NCBI GenBank assembly: GCA_905187655.1
Contig: CAJJIV010000001.1
Span: 1-51,428 of the forward strand
Length of the DNA: 51,428 bases
Source: an uncultured Eubacteriales bacterium
Lineage (GTDB): Bacteria; Bacillota; Clostridia; Christensenellales; UBA1242
Direction of reading: 5' to 3'
The notes under the pieces were generated by a model. The model made no database searches. It worked only from the letters and a program-made list of their open reading frames with translations, and was not told where the DNA came from. Position numbers and translations under genes: made by a program. Shown piece after piece: positions 7,128-44,943 of this stretch; the first letter of the stretch is position 1, and each line of letters starts with the position of its first letter.

Positions 7128-7748
7128 ATGCAAACTAAAGTATATAACATAAAAGGTGAAGAAGTTGGCAAAATGACTTTAAAAGATGATGTCTTTAAAG
7201 TTCCATACAACGAAGCAGTAATTCACCAAGTAGTTGTTGCAACACTTGCAAACAACAGACAAGGTACAAAAAGCACCCTAACCAGAAGTGAAGTTAGAGG
7301 TGGTGGCAGAAAGCCATGGAGACAAAAGGGAACTGGCAACGCAAGACAAGGTTCTACCCGTGCTCCACAATGGATAAAAGGTGGTGTGGTATTTGCACCA
7401 AAGCCAAGAGATTTCTCTAAAAAGGTTAACAAAAGGGTTAAAGAACTTGCTCTTAAAAGTGCATTGTCAACTCGTTTTGAAGAGAAGAATGTTATTGTTC
7501 TAGATGACTTAACCGTAGAACCAAAAACCAAAGAGTTTGTTAAAATTCTTGAAGCCCTTAATGTAAACAAGTCTGCACTTGTAGTTACCGATACCGTTAA
7601 CGAAAATGTAGTTCTTGCAACACGTAACCTACAAAATGTAGAAACCTCACACGCAGACATACTAAATACTTATGATGTAGTTACTAACGAAAAGCTTATC
7701 ATAACCAAGTCTGCCATCAAAAAGATAGAGGAGGCTTATGCAGAATAA
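7128..7748 (+). CDS. rplD: 50S ribosomal protein uL4
   Basis: Conserved uL4 sequence ([13 protein letters not shown]) and operon position. Confidence 0.97.
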
Positions 7749-8056: not shown

Positions 8057-8884
8057 ATGGCTATAAAAAGATATAATCCAACAAGTGCCGGTAGTAGATT
8101 TAAAAGTGCGCCTTCTTTTGAAGAAGTAACCACTTCAACACCAGAAAAATCACTACTTGCAACAAAAAAGAAAAATGCCGGTAGAAACTCTTATGGCAGA
8201 ATTACTGTTAGACACAAGGGTGGCGGAAACCGACAAAAATATCGTGTTATAGATTTTAATAGAGATAAAGATGGAATTCCTGCAAAGGTTGCAACTATTG
8301 AATATGACCCAAACAGAACCGCTTATATCGCACTATTACACTATGCCGATGGTGAAAAAAGATACATCTTGGCTCCAAACGGTCTTGCAGTTGGCGACAC
8401 CGTTATGAGTGGCAGGGAAGCTGAAATTAAAGTAGGTAATGCACTTCCACTAGAAGTTATTCCAGTAGGTTCAATTGTTCACAACATAGAACTATTGCCA
8501 AATCGTGGTGGTAAGGTTGCAAGAAGTGCTGGTAACTCGGCACAATTAATGGCTAAGGAAGGCAAATATGCCACACTAAGAATGCCATCTGGTGAAATGA
8601 GAAAAGTTCTTTTAACTTGCCGTGCAACAATTGGTGAAATTGGCAACCTAGACCATGAATTGGTTAAAATTGGAAAGGCTGGTAGAACAAGACATATGGG
8701 TATCAGACCAACCGTTCGTGGTGTTGTTATGAACCCAGTTGATCACCCACATGGTGGTGGTGAAGGTAAATCTCCAGTAGGTCTTCCAGCACCTCAAACT
8801 CCATGGGGCAAACCTGCTCTTGGCTTAAAGACCAGAAAGAAAAAGAACGCAACAAATAAACTTATGGTTAAGAGAATTAACTAG
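8057..8884 (+). CDS. rplB: 50S ribosomal protein uL2
   Basis: Conserved uL2 sequence ([13 protein letters not shown]). Confidence 0.98.
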
Positions 8885-8896
8885 TAGGAGGAAGAA

Positions 8897-9187
8897 ATGA
8901 GTAGATCAGTTAAAAAAGGTCCATATGTAGAAGAACGTCTTTCAAACAGAATAGACAAGATGAACGAATCTGGCGAAAAGAAAGTTATTAAAACTTGGTC
9001 GCGTTCATCTACCATACTTCCAACAATGGTAGGACATACAATTGCTGTTTATGATGGCAGAAAACATATCCCAGTTTACATTACAACTGAAATGGTAGGT
9101 TTTAAACTTGGTGAATTTGCTCCAACTAGAACATTTAAAGGTCACAAAGGTGCAAAAACAACCGCAAGCAAGGGAGGAAAACAATAA
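8897..9187 (+). CDS. rpsS: 30S ribosomal protein uS19
   Basis: Conserved uS19 sequence (SRSVKKGP...). Confidence 0.97.
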
Positions 9188-9576
9188 TGGCAACTAGACA
9201 AAGAGAAAAAGCTGCTGCAAGAGTCGCTAAAAAAGATAACAGACCACACGCAGTTGCAAAATATGTAAGAGTTTCTCCTAGCAAAGTAAGAATAATTTTA
9301 AATTTGATTAGAGGCAAAAACTATGCAGATGCAGAAGCAATTCTTGAATACAATGCAAGTCCTGCCGCAGAATTTGTTCTAAATGTTCTAAGAAGTGCCG
9401 GCGCTAATGCTGAAAACAACTTAGGACTTAACAAGTCTGAACTTTATGTTGCTGAAACTTTTGCAGATGGTGGCCCATCACTTAAAAGAAGCCAACCTGT
9501 TAACAAAGGCAGAGCACATGCAATACTAAAAAGAACATCACACATCACTGTTATTCTTGATGTGAAGAAAGCCTAG
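9187..9576 (+). CDS. rplV: 50S ribosomal protein uL22
   Basis: Conserved uL22 sequence. TAATG overlap with rpsS. Confidence 0.96.
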   Translation: MATRQREKAAARVAKKDNRPHAVAKYVRVSPSKVRIILNLIRGKNYADAEAILEYNASPAAEFVLNVLRSAGANAENNLGLNKSELYVAETFADGGPSLKRSQPVNKGRAHAILKRTSHITVILDVKKA

Positions 9577-9588
9577 GGAGGAAATCTA

Positions 9589-10263
9589 ATGGGACAGAAA
9601 GTTAATCCAAATGGTCTTCGTCTTGGCATTACTACTGGCTGGAAGAGTCAATGGTATGCAGACAAAAAGTCTTTCGCAAGTTTTATTAAAGAAGACAATG
9701 AAATAAGAAAGTATATTAAGACCAATTACAAAAATTGTGGTATTTCTGCAATTTTAATTGAAAGAGGCGAAAACAAGGTTAATATTACACTAGATACCTC
9801 TAAGCCTGGTGTCGTTATTGGGCAAAAAGGTGCTGGCGTAGAGGCTATGAAGAAGGAGTTAACAAAACTTGTTAATGGTAAAGTTGTTAACATTAATGTA
9901 GTAGAAGTTAAAGCTCCAGACTTTAATGCACAACTTGTTGCTGAAAGTATTGCTTTCCAACTTGAACAAAGAGTTGGTTTTAGAAGAGCAATGAAGCAAG
10001 CACTTAATCGTTGCCAAAGAGCAGGGGTTAAAGGTGTTAAAATTATGGTAGGTGGCAGACTTGATGGTGCAGAAATTGCAAGAAGCGAGTTCTATCAAGA
10101 AGGTTCACTTCCATTACAAACCCTAAGAGCGGACATAGACTATGGTTATGCAACAGCAAAAGCATATGGTTCTACCGGTGTTAAGGTTTGGATTTACAAG
10201 GGCGAAGTTCTTGGAAAAAAAGATTTAACAATTAGGGGAGGAAACAAAAATGTTGATGCCTAA
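9589..10263 (+). CDS. rpsC: 30S ribosomal protein uS3
   Basis: Conserved uS3 sequence ([13 protein letters not shown]). Confidence 0.98.
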
Positions 10264-21744: not shown

Positions 21745-21798
21745 TTTTACAAAAGTATGCTAAACTAAAAAAAACAAAAGAAAGGAGGAAGTTTGCAT

Positions 21799-22647
21799 AT
21801 GAAAATCCTAAACGGAAAGGATTTGGCTACCACAATTAAAGAAGAGATTAAAACAGAAATACAAAATGACTATATACTTAAGGGCAAAAGTGCACCAACA
21901 TTGGCGGTGGTTTTAGTTGGAGATAATCCTGCAAGCGAAATTTATGTGAGAAATAAGGTAAAAGCCTGTGAATATGTGGGACTTGGTAGTTTAGTCGAAC
22001 GACTGCCCCAAACTGCCACAGAGGCTGAAATTTTGGCTAAAATTGATATGTTAAACAAAAACAATGACATTTCTGGCATTCTAGTGCAACTTCCTTTGCC
22101 CAATAATTTAAACGAAACCAAGGTAATAGAGGCAATTGACCCTAATAAAGATGTAGATGCCTTAAGTTATATAAACAAGGGGAAATTGGTGTCAGGCACA
22201 AATATTATTGCACCCTGCACCGCAAGTGGAATAATAGATATACTAAAAATGAACGGCATAGAAATAAGTGGAAAAAGAGCAGTTGTTGTAGGAAGAAGTC
22301 AATTGGTTGGAAGACCGGTTGAAATATTATTAACCCAGAACAATGCAACTACCACCATTTGCCATAGCCGAACACAAAATTTAAAAGAAATAACAGCTTC
22401 GGCCGACATATTGGTTGTTGCTATAGGCAAACCAAACTTTATAACCGCTGAATATGTTAAAGAAGGTGCGGTGGTAATAGATGTTGGAATAAACAGGGTA
22501 AATGGCAAGGTGGTAGGAGATTGTGATTATAATAATTTACTAGAAAAAGTTGGAGCAATTACTCCTGTGCCTGGAGGTGTTGGACCTATGACAATCACAG
22601 AATTATTAAAAAACACGCTTAAACTTGCAAAGTGTCAAGAGAAATAA
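21799..22647 (+). CDS. folD: Bifunctional methylenetetrahydrofolate dehydrogenase/cyclohydrolase
   Basis: FolD motifs (VGDNPAS..YV, GRS.LVGRP, PGGVGPMT). ATG at 21799 follows AAAGGAGG. Confidence 0.93.
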   Translation: MKILNGKDLATTIKEEIKTEIQNDYILKGKSAPTLAVVLVGDNPASEIYVRNKVKACEYVGLGSLVERLPQTATEAEILAKIDMLNKNNDISGILVQLPLPNNLNETKVIEAIDPNKDVDALSYINKGKLVSGTNIIAPCTASGIIDILKMNGIEISGKRAVVVGRSQLVGRPVEILLTQNNATTTICHSRTQNLKEITASADILVVAIGKPNFITAEYVKEGAVVIDVGINRVNGKVVGDCDYNNLLEKVGAITPVPGGVGPMTITELLKNTLKLAKCQEK

Positions 22648-22800: not shown

Positions 22801-23133
22801 ATGAAGACATATGTTTACCCAGCCGTTATTTATGAAAACAAAGATGGCACTTATTATGCATCTATTATAGACCTTAACTTGTTGGCCGTTGGCGATACCG
22901 AACAAGATGCATTTATTCAAGCAAGAAATAGTTTAAAATCTTATTTTGAATTGTCGGCAAGATTTGACACCGAGGTGCCAGAACCATCAGATTTTAAACT
23001 AATTAAATCCAAATATCCAAAGCAAACTGTGGTTATGCTAGATGTATTGGTAAACGAAAGTGACCAAATACCAACCAAAGAAGACCAAAAGTACAAAGAT
23101 TTTATGAAATTGTTCTTTGATGAAGGTGAATAA
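22801..23133 (+). CDS. HicB-like antitoxin-fold (UPF0150-like) protein with no recognisable DNA-binding domain
   Basis: N-terminus YVYPAVIYENKDGTYYASIIDL...GDTEQDAFIQARNSLKSY fits the HicB N-domain pattern (Y-P-A...DG-Y...G-T-E-A). Confidence 0.55.
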   Translation: MKTYVYPAVIYENKDGTYYASIIDLNLLAVGDTEQDAFIQARNSLKSYFELSARFDTEVPEPSDFKLIKSKYPKQTVVMLDVLVNESDQIPTKEDQKYKDFMKLFFDEGE

Positions 23134-23147
23134 GGAGGCATAAAGTT

Positions 23148-23450
23148 ATGGATAAAGATTATCAAACTGACTTAGTTGTTCTTGCGCTTGCAGTTGGTTT
23201 TCAAACGGTGGCAAAGGACAAGAATATATATTTGACGACAATTTACAAAAAACAAACAAAAATGTACCCTTTTAACGAAAAGCAAGATGATATGCTATGT
23301 GGAAAGAGCGCCGAGATTTTGGCAATTATAGATGAAAGACTTGGTGTTAAAACCGACAGTAAAGACCTTAACAAAAGATACAAAGTTTTTTACGAAGCTC
23401 TTGCCGATGAAAATCATCCATTTTGGAAAATTGCAAAAGCAAATATGTAG
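23148..23450 (+). CDS. Hypothetical protein (100 aa)
   Basis: ORF with AAGGAGG SD, 14 nt after the previous stop. No recognised motif. Confidence 0.6.
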   Translation: MDKDYQTDLVVLALAVGFQTVAKDKNIYLTTIYKKQTKMYPFNEKQDDMLCGKSAEILAIIDERLGVKTDSKDLNKRYKVFYEALADENHPFWKIAKANM

Positions 23451-23458
23451 GAGGTTTT

Positions 23459-23671
23459 ATGAAAACAGTGAACAGAGCATATGGGGATTATGTTAAGCAA
23501 CTACTTGAAAAAGCGGGAGAAATTTTTAAAAACCTTACAACTGGTAAAACAGGAGAAGAAATCTTAAACAAAATAAGCACTGTTATAAAAAACGCTGAAA
23601 AGTGTTTAAAAGGTGAAATGCTTCTAGGTGGCACAATGCTTAATAAATTTATAGAGCCAACACTATCTTAA
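23459..23671 (+). CDS. Hypothetical small helical protein (70 aa)
   Basis: ATG at 23459 follows AGGAGG. The track start at 23423 lies inside the upstream gene. Confidence 0.55.
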   Translation: MKTVNRAYGDYVKQLLEKAGEIFKNLTTGKTGEEILNKISTVIKNAEKCLKGEMLLGGTMLNKFIEPTLS

Positions 23672-23683
23672 AGGAGAAATTTG

Positions 23684-24223
23684 GTGTCTACAAACTATCT
23701 AAAAGAAATAGCAACCACAATTGGTTGGCGTTTTGTTAACGATGGAGATAGATATGGTGTTTACGAATACATAAAGCAAGAAAACAAGTATGAATCTATC
23801 TGCCACATACTAAGAATTTATAATGACCCTAGTCAAGAAGAACTATATGAAATGTTTGAAACTCTTAAACGGGTTTTGCCACGAAAACTTAAAAAGGCAC
23901 TTGAAAAAATTACTAAGGGTGTAAAATTAGAAGAATTAGAAACGGTTGCTGACGTAATTAAATTTACGGTGGAAGAGTACAAATTTAAAACTGATTATGC
24001 CAAACTAAACGAGTATGGCAAGCTTTTAGGTGTTGACATACAAAAACTTGGATATAGTTTTAAGTATAAATTAACAAAAAAAGAGCGTGCAGAAATTTTG
24101 GCAAAAATTGAAATTGCCTTACCCATAGAAATTGCACCAATTTTGGGTAATATTAAAAAGGTGGATTACAAACTGGCATATATTAAAAAAAATAAGGCAA
24201 GTTTATTAGATAAAGAAGCATAA
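23684..24223 (+). CDS. Hypothetical protein (~179 aa)
   Basis: AAGGAG SD with GTG 7 nt downstream (TTG at 23681 is the alternative). No recognised motif. Confidence 0.6.
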   Translation: MSTNYLKEIATTIGWRFVNDGDRYGVYEYIKQENKYESICHILRIYNDPSQEELYEMFETLKRVLPRKLKKALEKITKGVKLEELETVADVIKFTVEEYKFKTDYAKLNEYGKLLGVDIQKLGYSFKYKLTKKERAEILAKIEIALPIEIAPILGNIKKVDYKLAYIKKNKASLLDKEA

Positions 24224-24229
24224 TATATA

Positions 24230-24273
24230 AGAGCAGATAAGTTAATGAGTATTGACTTTTCTGCTCTTTTGTT
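24230..24273 (+). terminator. Intrinsic terminator splitting the cassette into two units
   Basis: Stem agagcaga(t)aagt/actt(t)tctgctct followed by ttttgtt. Confidence 0.55.
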
Positions 24274-24280
24274 ATATTAT
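24252..24280 (+). promoter_or_regulatory. Promoter of the paralog array
   Basis: TTGACT (24252-24257), 17-nt spacer, TATTAT (24275-24280). Confidence 0.55.
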
Positions 24281-24312: not shown

Positions 24313-24885
24313 ATGACATTATTAACAGGATATTATGCTGACAAACAAAATTATGGCGAAATTGACCTTAATGCGTGTGCTGATAATTCCAAACGGGCTT
24401 ATATTAAATACCTAAAAGATTTGTGCAAACAGAGCATAAGCCTTGCCAAAGAATCTTTAACACATGGACATAAAAAAGAGGCTAAAAACAATTTAAATAA
24501 ATTTTATAATTACCATAAAAAACTTAATAAAATCAATCCGCTTAGTCCACTAGAATTTATAAATTATCTTAAAGACCAAGAAATTGACATTGCTGTTCAT
24601 AAACTGGGAGACATTGTAACAGAAATTAATTCTACAACTGGTGATAAAAGTTTTAAAACAAATAATAAATTGCAATACCAAAAAGATTATTTAATAAGGT
24701 ACATAACCGATTTGGCAAACCTTAAAGATAATAAAAGCATTGCAATTTTTTTGGCTCAAAGAGTTACCAGAACTTCCGGGGCTTCAGCAGAAAAGAGCAG
24801 TGTAGAAATACATTTAGATGTAGACTTAAAAAATGCATATGATAACTATTTAGAAAATCAAATGGACGATAAATTTAGTGATTAA
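24313..24885 (+). CDS. Hypothetical helical protein, paralog family member 1 (190 aa)
   Basis: AAGGAAGG SD. Shares three collinear motif blocks with the next three ORFs. Confidence 0.7.
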   Translation: MTLLTGYYADKQNYGEIDLNACADNSKRAYIKYLKDLCKQSISLAKESLTHGHKKEAKNNLNKFYNYHKKLNKINPLSPLEFINYLKDQEIDIAVHKLGDIVTEINSTTGDKSFKTNNKLQYQKDYLIRYITDLANLKDNKSIAIFLAQRVTRTSGASAEKSSVEIHLDVDLKNAYDNYLENQMDDKFSD

Positions 24886-24927
24886 CAAACAAAAATAAAA
24901 TATTAATAAAAGAAAGGGGGGAAAAAG

Positions 24928-25671
24928 ATGGCTTATTTATCAGAATTCGCATCAAAAATTAAGGAGCAATTTGGTTGCGATGGTTTAGCCCAAGAAACTA
25001 TTGATAGTGCAAAAGAAGTTGGCAAGCGAGTGTACTACGAAAAATTGCGTTACAAAAGTGTGGAATGTTTACAAATGGCAAAATGTCAAATGTCAAAAGG
25101 GGACAAAAAAAGTGCAAAAGCGTGGTTAGATGCACATAAGAAATTTCGCAAATTAGCAAAAGAAGTAAAGAATATGTCAACCAGCGCATTTTTTGCTAAG
25201 CTTGCACAACAAGAGAAAAGGGAAACAATGTATGTTCTGCAAGATATAATTGCAAAGTATGAAAAATTGGCAGGCAAAGAAAATCCTACCAAAGAACAAA
25301 AGCAACTGATGCAATATTATTCTGAAACAACCAAAGGATTGTATCAAATTTTGTCTGAATTGTATCAAAGTCCACAAATTGCCGAGTATTACCGAGCAAG
25401 CAAACTTGCTTATGATATGGGTGGTTGTAAAATTGATTTTAATAAAGAATTGCATGATGAATTAACTGGCAAAGCAAGAAAAATTGAGCCAGTAGTTTTA
25501 ACAGAAGACACTAAAACAACTTTACAAAGATTAGATAGTTTGTTTAATAAAGGTTATGACCTAAACGATAGCAAAAGCATATATCATCAATATTGTGCAA
25601 AATATGCTGTGGCACTTGGCTTGCAATTTGGCGTAATAAAGGGTCAAATACAACAAGGAGAAATTGAATAA
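24928..25671 (+). CDS. Hypothetical helical protein, paralog family member 2 (247 aa)
   Basis: GGGGGGA SD. Motif blocks shared with 24313, 25671 and 26150. Confidence 0.7.
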   Translation: MAYLSEFASKIKEQFGCDGLAQETIDSAKEVGKRVYYEKLRYKSVECLQMAKCQMSKGDKKSAKAWLDAHKKFRKLAKEVKNMSTSAFFAKLAQQEKRETMYVLQDIIAKYEKLAGKENPTKEQKQLMQYYSETTKGLYQILSELYQSPQIAEYYRASKLAYDMGGCKIDFNKELHDELTGKARKIEPVVLTEDTKTTLQRLDSLFNKGYDLNDSKSIYHQYCAKYAVALGLQFGVIKGQIQQGEIE

Positions 25672-26138
25672 TGGGTTCATTGATATTAGATTTTGGAACC
25701 AAGGTAACAAATTCAGATTGGGAATCTAGCAAAAATTACGAACAGGCATTAAGAGCGGGTAGAACGACATATCTTGAATTTGCAATATCGATAGCAAAAA
25801 CACCAAAAGCCCAAAAAGAAGTTGCGAAGTTAAGTGAATTGTCGCTAAAAGAGTTTTACATTTTATTGCGTGAAAGAGAGATTAAACTTGCTACATCTGG
25901 TGGGTTTGGAAAGCAGAATGAACAAGCGGAGAAATATGCAACAGAAATAAGAAATTGGCCAATGTTAACTAATTATTTTTTAGCTAGTAGATTGGTTGAA
26001 TCCAACGGAAGGTCAAGTCAAATTGGTTATTGTCAAATGGAGATAGACAAATATTTAGGACGTGCTAAAAGACAGTATATAACTCCAACCCCATATTGTC
26101 AGCGAGATAACCAAAATATAGGAAACGAAAATGAATAA
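25671..26138 (+). CDS. Hypothetical helical protein, paralog family member 3 (155 aa)
   Basis: TAATG overlap with the upstream gene. Motif blocks LSLKEFYILLREREIKLA and FLASRLVESNGRS. Confidence 0.7.
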   Translation: MGSLILDFGTKVTNSDWESSKNYEQALRAGRTTYLEFAISIAKTPKAQKEVAKLSELSLKEFYILLREREIKLATSGGFGKQNEQAEKYATEIRNWPMLTNYFLASRLVESNGRSSQIGYCQMEIDKYLGRAKRQYITPTPYCQRDNQNIGNENE

Positions 26139-26149
26139 GGAGATTGTTC

Positions 26150-26758
26150 GTGGCATTATTTAATGATGTAAAAGAAGATATAAGAAAGCTTTCTTCAGCC
26201 GAAATTAACGATATTTTTGAAGATGCAAAATATATTTACCGATTAAAACTAGAAAAAGAAAGATATATATTAAATTCAATGTACGAGAACCAAAACAAAG
26301 ATAAAAACCACGAGGTGTTTGTAAGGAGTTGCGGAGCAAGACTTAATTCACTATCAAAGTCCATTGATTTAATTGAAGAAACCAAGGCTGAAGATTTCGC
26401 AGATATAATGGTCATTCAGTTTAAAGATGCGTTAACAGAATTGATGTCAGATTACCTTAAAGCATATATACCAAACCTTAAAAGAGCACAAACCATTGGA
26501 GAAGGCCATAAGGCATATACCTGGCAAAAAAAAGCGCTTAGGACCAAAGAGTTTTATGGATTAGCAATAGGAATTGTTAACGAAATACAATTAGAAATGA
26601 TTTCTGAGGACTTAAAAGATATTGTAAAACCCTATTTATGTCAACAAGTTGTTTTACAAAAAGGTGAAGTGGTAAATAATTGGAAGAGTCTATTAGATAA
26701 AGTAATAAAAGGTAAGGCACTAATTCAGTTAACGCAAGAAGACCAAACTGAACAATAA
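26150..26758 (+). CDS. Hypothetical helical protein, probable paralog family member 4 (~202 aa)
   Basis: AAGGAG SD with GTG 7 nt downstream (the track TTG at 26144 is too close). Weaker shared blocks LEKERY and YLCQQVVLQKGEV. Confidence 0.6.
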   Translation: MALFNDVKEDIRKLSSAEINDIFEDAKYIYRLKLEKERYILNSMYENQNKDKNHEVFVRSCGARLNSLSKSIDLIEETKAEDFADIMVIQFKDALTELMSDYLKAYIPNLKRAQTIGEGHKAYTWQKKALRTKEFYGLAIGIVNEIQLEMISEDLKDIVKPYLCQQVVLQKGEVVNNWKSLLDKVIKGKALIQLTQEDQTEQ

Positions 26759-26771
26759 ATTAAAATATTAA

Positions 26772-26800
26772 AAACCGCTAAAGTGTTTCTTTAGCGGTTT
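26772..26800. terminator. Bidirectional terminator between the cassette and serS
   Basis: Perfect 12-bp stem aaaccgctaaag/ctttagcggttt with T-runs on both strands. Confidence 0.85.
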
Positions 26801-26811
26801 AATTTTATTTT

Positions 26812-28101
26812 TTAGTTCTTTTTAGGTTCAATTTTTGTTTTGCCACCCATATATGGTCGTAGTACTGTTGGAATATTTACACTGCCATCTTCATTTAAGT
26901 GATTTTCAATAAGTGCTATTAGCATTCTTGGTGGGGCAACAACGGTGTTATTTAGTGTGTGTGCAAAGTGGTTGCCGGTTGCATCTTTAAACTTAATTCC
27001 AAGTCTTCTTGCTTGGGCATCGGTAAGATTACTGCAAGAACCAACTTCAAAATATTTTTGCTGTCTAGGGCTCCAAGCCTCTACATCTAGACTTTTATAT
27101 TTAAGGTCGGCAAGGTCGCCTGAACAACAAATAAGTGTTCTAACAGGAATTTCCATAGAAACAAACAAATCCACAGTGTTTTGCCAAAGTTTTTTATACC
27201 AAGTTTCACTTTCTTCTGGCTTGCAAATTACTATCATTTCTTGCTTTTCAAATTGATGAATGCGGTAAATTCCTCGTTCTTCAATGCCGTGAGCACCTTT
27301 TTCTTTTCTAAAACAAGGCGAATAGCTAGTAAGAGTAAGTGGCAATTTCTTTTCATCAATAATTGTATTCATAAATCTGCCAATCATAGAATGTTCACTG
27401 GTGCCAATTAAATAAAGGTCTTCGCCTTCAATTTTGTACATCATATTGTCCATTTCATCAAAACTCATTACACCGGTAACTACATCGCTTCTAATCATAT
27501 ATGGTGGAATTACATAGGTAAAACCACGGTCAATCATAAAATCTCGAGCATAACTAAGTACGGCACTATGCAATCTGGCAATGTCCCCTGTTAAGTAATA
27601 AAAACCTTGCCCGCTTGTTCGCCTTGCACTATCTACATCTATGCCATCAAGATTTTCCAAAATGTCTAGATGGTAGGGAATATCAAAAGGTTTAAGTTTT
27701 GGTTCCAAAAATCTTTGACCCTCCACATTTTTGCTGTCATCTTCGCCAAGTGGCACATCATCAGCAATAATATTAGGAATGGTCATCATAATTTTTTTAA
27801 GTTCGCCGTTAAGCAAATTTTGATTTTCTTCTTCGGCAGAAATTTTTGAGTTTATTTCATTAACTTTTGCCTTGTTTTTGTCGGCTTCGGCGATATTCTT
27901 TTCTTTCATAAATTTGCCAATTAGTGAAGAAAGAGTGTTTCGTTCTGCTCTAAGGGTTTCTGCCTTAGTTTTGCTTTCTCTTATTTGTTTGTCTAGTTCA
28001 ACAGCCTTGTCAACCAAATTAAGCTTATGGTTTTGAAACTTTTTTTTAATATTTTCTTTAACAAGGTCTGGATTGGTTCTTAGCAAATTAATATCTATCA
28101 T
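26812..28101 (-). CDS. serS: Serine--tRNA ligase
   Basis: 429 aa with an N-terminal coiled-coil arm and class II core (TSEHS, FRKE.G..G...RG..R.HQF.K.E). Confidence 0.95.
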   Translation of the reverse strand: MIDINLLRTNPDLVKENIKKKFQNHKLNLVDKAVELDKQIRESKTKAETLRAERNTLSSLIGKFMKEKNIAEADKNKAKVNEINSKISAEEENQNLLNGELKKIMMTIPNIIADDVPLGEDDSKNVEGQRFLEPKLKPFDIPYHLDILENLDGIDVDSARRTSGQGFYYLTGDIARLHSAVLSYARDFMIDRGFTYVIPPYMIRSDVVTGVMSFDEMDNMMYKIEGEDLYLIGTSEHSMIGRFMNTIIDEKKLPLTLTSYSPCFRKEKGAHGIEERGIYRIHQFEKQEMIVICKPEESETWYKKLWQNTVDLFVSMEIPVRTLICCSGDLADLKYKSLDVEAWSPRQQKYFEVGSCSNLTDAQARRLGIKFKDATGNHFAHTLNNTVVAPPRMLIALIENHLNEDGSVNIPTVLRPYMGGKTKIEPKKN

Positions 28102-29421: not shown

Positions 29422-29772
29422 ATGAATATTTATACATCTTCAAGATACTATAACACAAAAAAAGTTATTATATCCAATTACGGAACTCCAAAAGAACTTG
29501 CCGATTTTGAAATGGACTTTGCATCGCTTAATTACTGTTTAAATTCAGTTGAAAAGAGTTTGGCAGATCGCAAAATAGGTGAAGTTTTTAACCTGGACCC
29601 AAATGTAATTAATTTATCAAAGTCACAGCCCAATATGGTAAAGATTCTTAGTGAAATAGAAAGTTGTGGCGATCGCTATAATCCCAAAGAGCAGAAAATA
29701 GTTTCCGCTGTGCTTAAAAAAGTGTACTTTGATAAATACATAAAAACAAAAGAAGAACAAGAGCAAAAATAA
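29422..29772 (+). CDS. Hypothetical protein (116 aa)
   Basis: AAGGAG SD. No recognised motif. Confidence 0.55.
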   Translation: MNIYTSSRYYNTKKVIISNYGTPKELADFEMDFASLNYCLNSVEKSLADRKIGEVFNLDPNVINLSKSQPNMVKILSEIESCGDRYNPKEQKIVSAVLKKVYFDKYIKTKEEQEQK

Positions 29773-43825: not shown

Positions 43826-44119
43826 ATGGCAAAGAAAGGACAGTATTTTCAAAGTTATTCTAATGACTTGAAATACGAAGTGTTGGTAAAACACTTTAAT
43901 GAGTTTATTCCAGATACTCAGTTGTCCAAAATGTATGGGATACCCCGTGGTACAATAAGAAACTGGATAATTAAGTGTAAGAAAGGAGAAGATTTTTACA
44001 CAGACTATAGAAGTTTAGGCTATGGCAGACCAAGAGTAGCAGATATTGACTATAAGGAAAAATATATGTTACTAAAAAAAATCCTGAATTTCAAAACACA
44101 ACTAAAAGAGAGAAGATAA
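43826..44119 (+). CDS. IS3-family transposase OrfA (HTH)
   Basis: 97 aa with AAGGAG SD. Small basic HTH-like protein preceding the rve-type orfB. Confidence 0.85.
   Translation: MAKKGQYFQSYSNDLKYEVLVKHFNEFIPDTQLSKMYGIPRGTIRNWIIKCKKGEDFYTDYRSLGYGRPRVADIDYKEKYMLLKKILNFKTQLKERR
44074..44080 (+). promoter_or_regulatory. Programmed -1 ribosomal frameshift site A AAA AAA
   Basis: Heptamer in the orfA zero frame (cuA AAA AAA auc). The -1 frame is open from 44056 and continues into orfB. Confidence 0.75.
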
Positions 44120-44943
44120 TCTTAATCAACACACTTAAAGAGCATTATCCTGTAAGATTGTTATGTGATTTGCTAGATATTTCAGAACGAACATATTATA
44201 GACATAGAGATGATAAAGACTCTGATATTGCAGATTATCTCCTTATAAAAGAAGTCTTTAATGATTCTATGCAAACTTATGGATATAGAAGAATTAAGAA
44301 AGCTTTACTACTTAAACATGGTGTGGTAATGAATGAAAAGAAAATACTCAGGATTATGAGAAAATATGGTTTAATGGCTAGATATGTTACTAAATGCAAG
44401 AAACCACATTATCGTAGAATTGAAGAAAATGTAAGACCGGACTTAGTTAAAAGACATTTCAATGTAGATGCTCCAGATAAAGTTTGGGTTACTGATATAA
44501 CCTATTTAACTTTAGGTAACAAAAGAATGTATTTATCTACTATTCTCGACCTATATGATGGTAGTGTTGTATCTTACAAAGTTCATCATTCTCCAACTGT
44601 TGATTTAGTTATAGAAACCCTAAAATTTGGTCATTTAATGAGATATTGGGCTAAAAATGTAATTATTCATAGCGACCAAGGAACTCAATATACTTCTCAT
44701 GAATACAAAGCATTTTGTAATAATTTAGGATTTCAAATATCGATGAGCAGAAAAGGTAGTCCATTAGACAATGCTGTTATGGAAAACTGGCATAGTTTAC
44801 TTAAAAAAGAGACCTTACACAACAATGATTACCAAGATATTAACGAGTATGTAAATGGTGTTTTTGACTGGATTTGGTTCTATAAGACTGAAAGGATTAG
44901 CTTAAGTGAACGACAACATAATATAAATGAAAATATTTGTTAG
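44080..44943 (+). CDS. IS3-family transposase OrfB (DDE/rve catalytic part, made as an OrfAB fusion by -1 frameshift)
   Basis: DDE context VWVTDITY, HSDQGTQYTS, DNAVMENWHSLLKKE. There is no convincing independent start, and the track start at 44158 is a TTG. Confidence 0.85.
   Translation, partial: NPEFQNTTKREKIILINTLKEHYPVRLLCDLLDISERTYYRHRDDKDSDIADYLLIKEVFNDSMQTYGYRRIKKALLLKHGVVMNEKKILRIMRKYGLMARYVTKCKKPHYRRIEENVRPDLVKRHFNVDAPDKVWVTDITYLTLGNKRMYLSTILDLYDGSVVSYKVHHSPTVDLVIETLKFGHLMRYWAKNVIIHSDQGTQYTSHEYKAFCNNLGFQISMSRKGSPLDNAVMENWHSLLKKETLHNNDYQDINEYVNGVFDWIWFYKTERISLSERQHNINENIC

Follow-up and report, generated by a model that had tools for sequence, protein, structure and literature searches.

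A taxonomically restricted operon with three tandem paralogs in a variable chromosomal slot of an uncultured Christensenellales bacterium

Four genes between folD and serS

The subject of this analysis is a run of four small genes, P5 to P8, on contig CAJJIV010000001.1 of an uncultured Christensenellales bacterium, a member of a gut lineage, with a GC content of 34%. By the window we mean the whole stretch of 51,428 nucleotides (51 kb) that was analysed. It carries the S10-spc-alpha ribosomal-protein operons (approximately 6.0–21.7 kb), followed by folD (21793–22647), a block of eight genes on the + strand and the convergent gene serS (26812–28101). P5–P8 are the final four genes of this block, and four others, I1–I4, precede them. 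An earlier note, made from the letters of the sequence, had proposed that P5–P8 are tandem, diverged paralogs of a helical protein family, perhaps an orphan array of immunity proteins.

All four genes are read from the + strand. P5 (24313–24885) encodes 190 amino acids (aa), P6 (24928–25671) encodes 247 aa, including a C-terminal extension of approximately 70 aa, and P7 (25671–26138), the shortest of the paralogs, encodes 155 aa; the start of P7 overlaps the stop of P6 in the sequence TAATG at 25669–25673. P8 (26150–26758), the last gene of the operon, yields 202 aa from a GTG start, and its mechanical open reading frame (ORF) begins at TTG 26144. The tight packing, the sizes and the overlap are all as the earlier note had described them. 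A Shine-Dalgarno-like motif lies 7–9 nt upstream of every one of the four genes, independent gene callers returned the same four products in public assemblies, and the remaining five frames across P5–P8 hold short ORFs only. The exact P6 protein was found on 17 contigs, in a constant context. We considered whether P5–P8 might be spurious ORFs and rejected this idea: they are long for a GC content of 34%, possess ribosome-binding sites, have orthologous ORFs in a second species and show a ratio of non-synonymous to synonymous nucleotide diversity (piN/piS) below 1.

The signals that would govern transcription lie at both ends of the four genes. Between I4 and P5, on the + strand, there is an intrinsic terminator of the I1–I4 unit (24220–24277), a hairpin followed by UUUUGUU, whose predicted RNA fold reaches a dG of −23.4 kcal/mol (z = −5.3; none of 200 shuffled sequences folded as well). 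It is overlapped by a predicted sigma-70-type promoter of P5–P8 (24252–24280, + strand), made of TTGACT and TATTAT separated by 17 nt, with a score of 10 out of 12 in a consensus scan. Downstream of P8, a bidirectional intrinsic terminator (26772–26800) with a 12-bp stem and T runs on both strands would serve P5–P8 as well as the convergent serS. With a predicted promoter in front and terminators on both sides, P5–P8 can be regarded as a transcription unit of their own. Equivalents of the upstream signals are present in locus L091 of a sister species, where the counterparts of P5–P8, named J5–J8, are located (see below): a 12-bp hairpin with one G-U pair, read from the sequence at approximately 8653–8687, and TTGACT-17-TATAAT at 8673–8701, 5′ of the J5 ATG, which has been kept despite the unconserved coding DNA. 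As far as sequence can tell, P5–P8 form a self-contained four-gene operon, with a predicted promoter conserved in both species. The public gene call of L091 places the start of J5 at 8663 and thereby takes in the conserved promoter; translation more likely begins at the ATG at 8729, giving 207 aa and not 229. An Rfam scan of 21.6–29.5 kb gave zero matches above threshold.

Relationships, distribution and divergence of P5–P8

The significance of Smith–Waterman alignments was assessed with 300 composition-preserving shuffles per pair. P5 and P6 reached z = 9.6, P5 and P7 reached z = 5.1, and P6 and P7 reached z = 2.8; no further pair among the eight island proteins rose above z = 2.9. The BLASTP alignment of P5 (residues 19–110) with P6 (residues 25–116) comprises 92 ungapped residues at 24% identity (E = 2e-6) and spans the first two of three motif blocks, A, B and C, to which the earlier note had drawn attention. 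A profile of P5 and P6 found P7 with E = 0.0023, via blocks B and C. Profiles F5, F6 and F7, each made from a window protein and its sister-species ortholog, were compared by hhalign, with E = 1.4e-5 over 149 columns for F5–F6, E = 1e-6 for F6–F7 and E = 4e-3 for F5–F7; in a column-shuffle control of F6–F7, none of 60 shuffles reached the score (z = 17.7). The motif blocks sit at the residues named in the earlier note, and the alignments from BLASTP and hhalign agree with them.

Identity among the paralogs P5, P6 and P7 is approximately 22%, and three residues, F82, A148 and G156 in P5 numbering, are invariant across the six family members of the two species. The family signature consists of an N-terminal helical hairpin with a glycine at the turn, then 'LS..EF...L..EI', and then 'YFLASRL..SNG', the clearest block. 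P7 carries this signature in its clearest form, as 'LSLKEFYILLREREI' and 'YFLASRLVESNG'. These alignments show P5, P6 and P7 to be old tandem duplicates of one ancestral gene, that is, true but strongly diverged paralogs. Neither DNA homology blocks nor direct repeats were found between the paralogs of P5–P8.

P8 was compared with P5–P7 in the same ways. The Smith–Waterman scores (z ≤ 0.4) and the hhalign comparisons (E = 0.46 and 0.15) are not significant, and three of 60 shuffles reached the score in the column-shuffle control (z = 1.6). By eye, P8 and its ortholog J8 bear a weak collinear likeness to the three blocks, which is not demonstrably above chance, and the match of YEKLRY in P6 with LEKERY in P8, which had been offered as additional support for kinship, is without statistical backing. 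P8 is not demonstrably related to its neighbours and would represent either a separate family or one diverged past detection. The observation of four tandem paralogs is therefore confirmed in part, three of the four genes being paralogous; the all-versus-all profile alignment proposed in the earlier note joined P5, P6 and P7 significantly and left P8 out.

An AlphaFold2 model of P5, built from a four-sequence alignment, is all-helical with seven helices, at a mean predicted local distance difference test (pLDDT) value of 61.8 and a predicted template modelling score (pTM) of 0.55. The hairpin of residues 19–74, with block A at its turn (G52), is confident (pLDDT 82–91), and the remainder of the model is of low confidence. 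When the model was compared with the PDB by Foldseek, every match had an E value of 0.3 or more and a template modelling (TM) score of at most 0.32. The top matches, none of them significant, were ESCRT-III-type proteins, BAR domains and ferritins with TM scores of about 0.3, which are generic for helical models. The structural check that the earlier note had called for, run on P5, returned a confident helical hairpin and no significant fold match, so that its word "helical" holds for P5 only, from a low-confidence model. It was right about membrane helices, as no transmembrane-like segment was found in P5–P8 (maximum KD19 below 1.2).

No significant match for P5–P8 was obtained in Pfam, NCBIfam, PHROGs or PADLOC, and these searches also covered I1–I4, the sister-species orthologs and the proteins K5 and K6 described below. 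Nothing passed any curated cut-off of Pfam or NCBIfam (best E values of 0.006–0.3, to unrelated families), a profile of the P family had zero matches among PDB sequences, and the best PADLOC match, of P6 to DrmMII (E = 0.0044, 14 bits, 49 residues), had no equivalent for the orthologs. Word-index searches of 5.8 billion clusters with P5 and P6 retrieved same-species variants of at least 99% identity only. When 1.84 billion representatives were searched exhaustively by hmmsearch with a profile of P5, P6 and P7, the queries themselves came back together with a single new protein, P0056, which has 32–33% identity to P7 (E = 1e-24). This protein, which is J7, belongs to L091, where it is part of a syntenic eight-gene island straight after folD; orthologs of I1–I4 are followed there by J5–J8 of 207 (corrected start), 188, 170 and 213 aa. 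J8 is the ortholog of P8, with 26–27% identity over 188 aligned aa (E = 8e-17). It is important to note that the exhaustive profile search has a limited reach, because the true members J5 and J6 were missed.

Searches of mobile-element and metagenome data were negative: tblastn with P5, P6, P7 and J7 against 50,697 phage records gave nothing significant, tblastn with P8 only against plasmid records gave no match, and no relatives were found among IMG/VR viral contigs, scanned with P6, with P8 and with the family alignment, or in a JGI metagenome contig scan with an alignment of P7, J7 and J6, nor in a similar scan with the I4 pair. The six-sequence family alignment is too diverged for deriving search patterns. 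A genome scan anchored on SerRS produced at least 80 loci (best identity 78%), and among the matches listed there was neither synteny nor any island protein; this anchor is too conserved to single out island-bearing genomes. J7 has weak matches to phrog_2726 (E = 0.004) and Pfam DUF7272 (E = 0.008), both over the region of blocks B and C and confined to this one of the six family members; a literature search found no papers on DUF7272. Judging from these searches, the P5/P6/P7 family is undescribed, as the earlier note had suspected, and its known carriers are two sister species only.

The divergence between these species was measured as the identity of each window protein to its L091 counterpart. 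Adk (96%), RpoA (95%), SerRS (93%), FolD (78%) and RlmL (76%) lie in a range that also takes in I1 (81%), I2 (79%) and I4 (71%). I3 stands at 39%, and the product of orf116 (29422–29772) at 43%. For P5, P6, P7 and P8 the identity to their counterparts is 23%, 22%, 33% and 26%. As for orf116, it is an ORF of 116 aa between the gene of an RlmL-like methyltransferase and dnaB, without a Pfam match. I3 and orf116 diverge fast as well, so that part of the divergence of P5–P8 can be put down to small proteins being weakly constrained.

Within species, the composition of the array was unchanged on 22 of 22 contigs of the window species and on 6 of 6 contigs of the sister species. The piN/piS values are 0.05 for P5, 0.14 for P6, 0.44 for P7 and 0.33 for P8, with 0.00–0.06 for housekeeping neighbours. 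Fixed gene content and piN/piS below 1 within the window species indicate that P5–P8 are real, constrained genes. The synonymous diversity of P8 is the highest of the region (piS 0.050; 0.005–0.033 for neighbours), with seven alleles among 14 sequences, which may result from local recombination or from an older polymorphism. Both the GC content and its value at third codon positions (GC3) in P5–P8 are like those of the rest of the genome; the native GC3 gives no sign of a recent import, and no direct repeats or att-like sites flanking the island were found. Overall, P5–P8 are vertically inherited in the short term and extremely divergent over a slightly longer term.

The I1–I4 module and the slot behind it

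The I1–I4 module (22801–24223, + strand) lies outside the P family and forms its context, with the slot that holds P5–P8 downstream. I1 (22801–23133) encodes a HicB-like protein of approximately 110 aa and I2 (23148–23450) a protein of approximately 100 aa; I3 (23459–23671) is a variable helical gene, of 53–85 aa across species, and the product of I4 (23684–24223) has approximately 177 aa. I1, with its HicB-like N-terminal domain, matches the phage protein family PHROG 497 at 4e-13, and its score for Pfam HicB_lk_antitox, 18.7 bits, is under the cut-off of 27. I4 has 26 homolog clusters at 39–72% identity, all unannotated. The module is kept beside ribosomal-protein operons in at least eight species-level contexts from Christensenellales-like metagenome-assembled genomes, and no member is annotated. 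I1 and I4 recur together beside the ribosomal-protein operon in every context fetched, and in two distant contexts a single protein of 171–185 aa takes the place of I2 and I3. Elsewhere the module is found at 7186–8633 in L091, 7144–8531 in L097, 6946–8531 in L103, 7169–8534 in L100 and 7105–8531 in L101.

In a confident AlphaFold2 model made with 24 homologs (pLDDT 90, pTM 0.81), I4 begins with an alpha-beta3-alpha unit, and a helical domain of approximately 115 aa follows at the C-terminus. Neither the PDB nor BFVD offered a significant match to the model. Its N-terminal unit has weak sub-domain matches to HicA (6g26_F, 1whz; probability about 0.7, TM score about 0.58), and a HicA sequence signal, searched with Pfam, is absent from all 24 I4 homologs. 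The fold matches suggest, weakly, that a HicB-like gene is accompanied here by a HicA-like domain in degenerate form. A tblastn search of phage records with I4 gave nothing significant. Pfam aligns I2 over almost its full length (residues 4–91) with positions 12–100 of 144 in the profile of the anti-CBASS protein Acb1; the match is weak (E = 0.041) and probably due to chance, I2 being without the HxT motifs of 2H phosphoesterases.

What follows I4 differs from species to species. In the window it is P5–P8, and in L091 it is J5–J8 together with five metabolic or regulatory genes; L103 and L109 have nothing before serS. L097 carries K5 and K6 (8632–9888; 207 and 206 aa), followed by a small helix-turn-helix gene on the other strand; these two are mutually paralogous (25% identity, E = 6e-13) and show no similarity to the P family. 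L099 (9016–13620) and L100 (9145–13749) contain a diversity-generating retroelement cassette, composed of a 661-aa DUF6273 target, a bAvd-like protein and a reverse transcriptase, and L101 and L105 contain other genes. Such differing cargo among species indicates that the P5–P8 array sits in a variable slot. None of the cargo matched a known defence-system model in PADLOC. In the related species with the cassette (L099 and L100), a second DUF6273 gene was seen upstream.

According to Pfam scans, the domains in the larger ORFs of the window are solely housekeeping, glycogen, ABC-transporter, IS3 and RadC domains. The IS3-type insertion sequence is located at 43826–44943, 3′ of the glycogen-metabolism genes, where a 97-aa ORF precedes a transposase of 261 aa (HTH_21 and rve).

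What P5–P8 might be, and their place among known systems

The best-supported description of P5–P8 is that of a taxonomically restricted operon of small, soluble, predicted-helical proteins, three of them tandem duplicates, in a variable chromosomal slot. Beyond this description, it is tempting to suppose that the proteins are non-enzymatic binders that track a fast-evolving partner, a reading that we favour over the others but put forward tentatively and would stop short of calling probable. P5–P8 would then be helical binding proteins, with the paralogs possibly assembled in a hetero-oligomer and with surfaces that keep pace with the changes of the partner; a conflict-type role, whether neutralising, decoy or antitoxin-like, could be imagined for them. 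Their fast divergence between species and their position in a variable slot are compatible with such a role, but do not show one, and several observations weigh against it. Near P5–P8, in the 51 kb of the window, there is no toxin, phage or secretion gene and no partner. Fast divergence by itself need not mean an arms race: I3 and orf116, at 39% and 43% identity, are fast-diverging too, and weak constraint could explain much. The comparison between species covers two very diverged ones. Copy-number variation among strains, usual in conflict arrays, is absent, and the P5 model, of low confidence outside the hairpin, gives generic helical fold matches (best E = 0.3).

A serious rival, which we regard as possible though on the unlikely side, is that P5–P8 are accessory or structural proteins peculiar to this lineage, weakly constrained and without a role in conflict, which may assist I1–I4 or serve another function inside the cell. 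They would drift fast since small helical proteins tolerate many substitutions. The rapid divergence of the small neighbours I3 and orf116 speaks for this explanation, together with a gene content fixed on 22 of 22 and 6 of 6 contigs, piN/piS below 1, a base composition that matches the genome and the lack of mobile-element or toxin genes nearby. However, P5–P8, at 22–33% identity, are clearly under even I3 and orf116. A strong terminator and their own predicted promoter set them apart from the I1–I4 module, and many species have I1–I4 without P-like genes, which means that the module does not need P5–P8. Improbable, in our opinion, is the orphan array of immunity proteins against competitors' polymorphic toxins, each paralog neutralising a different toxin variant. 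In its favour, P5–P8 are small, cytosolic and non-identical, lie in tandem on a single strand, diverge very fast between species and occupy a variable slot; moreover, type VII secretion system (T7SS) loci of Firmicutes are known to carry rows of non-identical immunity paralogs (PMC9484751). We looked for four features of immunity arrays: a toxin or secretion locus, tandem small cytoplasmic paralogs, strain-level variation in copy number and membership of a described immunity family (Imm/SUKH/DUF600-type). The tandem paralogs were found in P5, P6 and P7, and not demonstrably in P8. Pfam scans of the larger ORFs found no toxin, LXG, Rhs or T7SS domain in the 51 kb, in agreement with the earlier note's remark that no toxin gene is present, and no toxin or secretion-system gene adjoins P5–P8 within the window. 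The survey of copy number in related contigs, which that note had recommended, revealed neither gain nor loss of copies across the 22 and 6 contigs, and no known immunity family was matched in Pfam or NCBIfam. The paralogs also lack common DNA homology blocks that could drive recombination, and the family is limited to two sister species instead of being spread by transfer. The note's orphan-array proposal thus fails on the toxin, on copy variation and on immunity families.

The idea that P5–P8 are a remnant, moron or anti-defence genes that a phage or another mobile element left behind in the chromosome, is very unlikely to be correct. It draws on the neighbouring HicB-like I1 with its match to PHROG 497, and on the weak matches of J7 to phrog_2726 and DUF7272, which are seen, however, in one of six family members only. 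Phage records, IMG/VR and plasmid records (P8 only) were all negative, the window contains no integrase, att-like flanking repeats or phage structural genes, and the genes occupy an identical chromosomal position in two species with native GC3. The suggestion of a phage anti-defence gene set, also raised in the earlier note, is not borne out either, with no relatives on phages, plasmids (P8 only) or viral contigs and no phage or integrase genes nearby. Hardly more credible is a family of ESCRT-III/PspA-like membrane-remodelling paralogs, built of a long N-terminal helical hairpin and shorter helices. CdvB, CdvB2, CHMP4-7 and Vipp1 are among the top Foldseek matches in the PDB (ranks 1–4, 11, 12 and 46), and there is a likeness to such proteins in the size of 155–247 aa, in the long hairpin, which is modelled with confidence, and in acidic tails at the C-terminus; nevertheless, no fold match is significant (best E = 0.3, TM score ≤ 0.32), confidence in the model is low beyond the hairpin, Pfam gave no Snf7 or PspA_IM30 match, and the family profile has no PDB sequence match. 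Finally, Christensenellales could possess an undescribed system, for conflict or for regulation, with I1–I4 at its core; the slot would hold exchangeable, fast-evolving specificity or immunity cargo, and P5, P6 and P7 would act together with the module as variable binding subunits. This is quite improbable, and so is the wider grouping that it would imply, with P5–P8, J5–J8 in L091, K5/K6 in L097 and the retroelement cassette in L099 and L100 all counted as cargo.

If the arms-race reading, of binders that follow a fast-evolving partner, were true, P5–P8 would point to a conflict locus that had gone unrecognised in the uncultured gut lineage Christensenellales, where a related species has a diversity-generating retroelement in the same slot beside a HicB-like module. 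At present, what has been documented is a taxonomically restricted family expanded through tandem duplication, and such families are common in metagenome-assembled genomes. Its practical value is modest without a partner or a phenotype, and the family offers a well-delimited test case for orphan-gene evolution, with two species, eight proteins and a clear signature motif.

Among known systems, the slot can be set beside defence islands, whose variable cargo slots (hotspots) are flanked by conserved core genes. The site between I4 and serS likewise holds unrelated gene sets in related species, such as the retroelement cassette and K5/K6; unlike in those hotspots, no cargo matches a known defence model, and the P5–P8 cargo is constant within the window species. 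The I1–I4 module recalls HicAB modules, which are defined by a HicB-type antitoxin domain and a HicA toxin of the double-stranded RNA-binding domain fold with a conserved catalytic histidine. The resemblance lies in the HicB-like I1 and in the weak HicA fold matches of the N-terminal unit of I4. Herein, however, two extra genes separate I1 from I4, I4 has an added helical C-terminal domain of approximately 115 aa and none of its 24 homologs gives a HicA sequence signal, and the module is vertically conserved beside ribosomal-protein operons, whereas HicAB modules are mobile.

For the array itself, the nearest likeness is to the strings of T7SS immunity paralogs in Firmicutes, namely EsaG, TsaI and TipC; according to Garrett et al. 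2022 (PMC9484751), these strings sit in T7SS/toxin loci and their copy number shifts among strains via recombination across conserved DNA blocks. They too are non-identical small cytoplasmic paralogs arranged head to tail on one strand, with conserved blocks and variable regions. P5–P8 differ from the strings so described in that no toxin or T7SS gene lies in the 51 kb, there is no DNA repeat between the paralogs, the paralogs are approximately 22% identical, the array is constant across the sampled strains and no immunity family is matched. Immunity-type genes can also be present in a genome that lacks the cognate toxin, as the earlier note's model would have it. In Bacteroidales, according to PMC10470768, orphan immunity genes occur in acquired interbacterial defence systems, and the associated type VI secretion system is horizontally transferred. 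P5–P8, by contrast, are confined to one syntenic chromosomal site in two sister species and have a native composition. Overall, P5–P8 add a further orphan family to a familiar class, and do not amount to a new kind of system.

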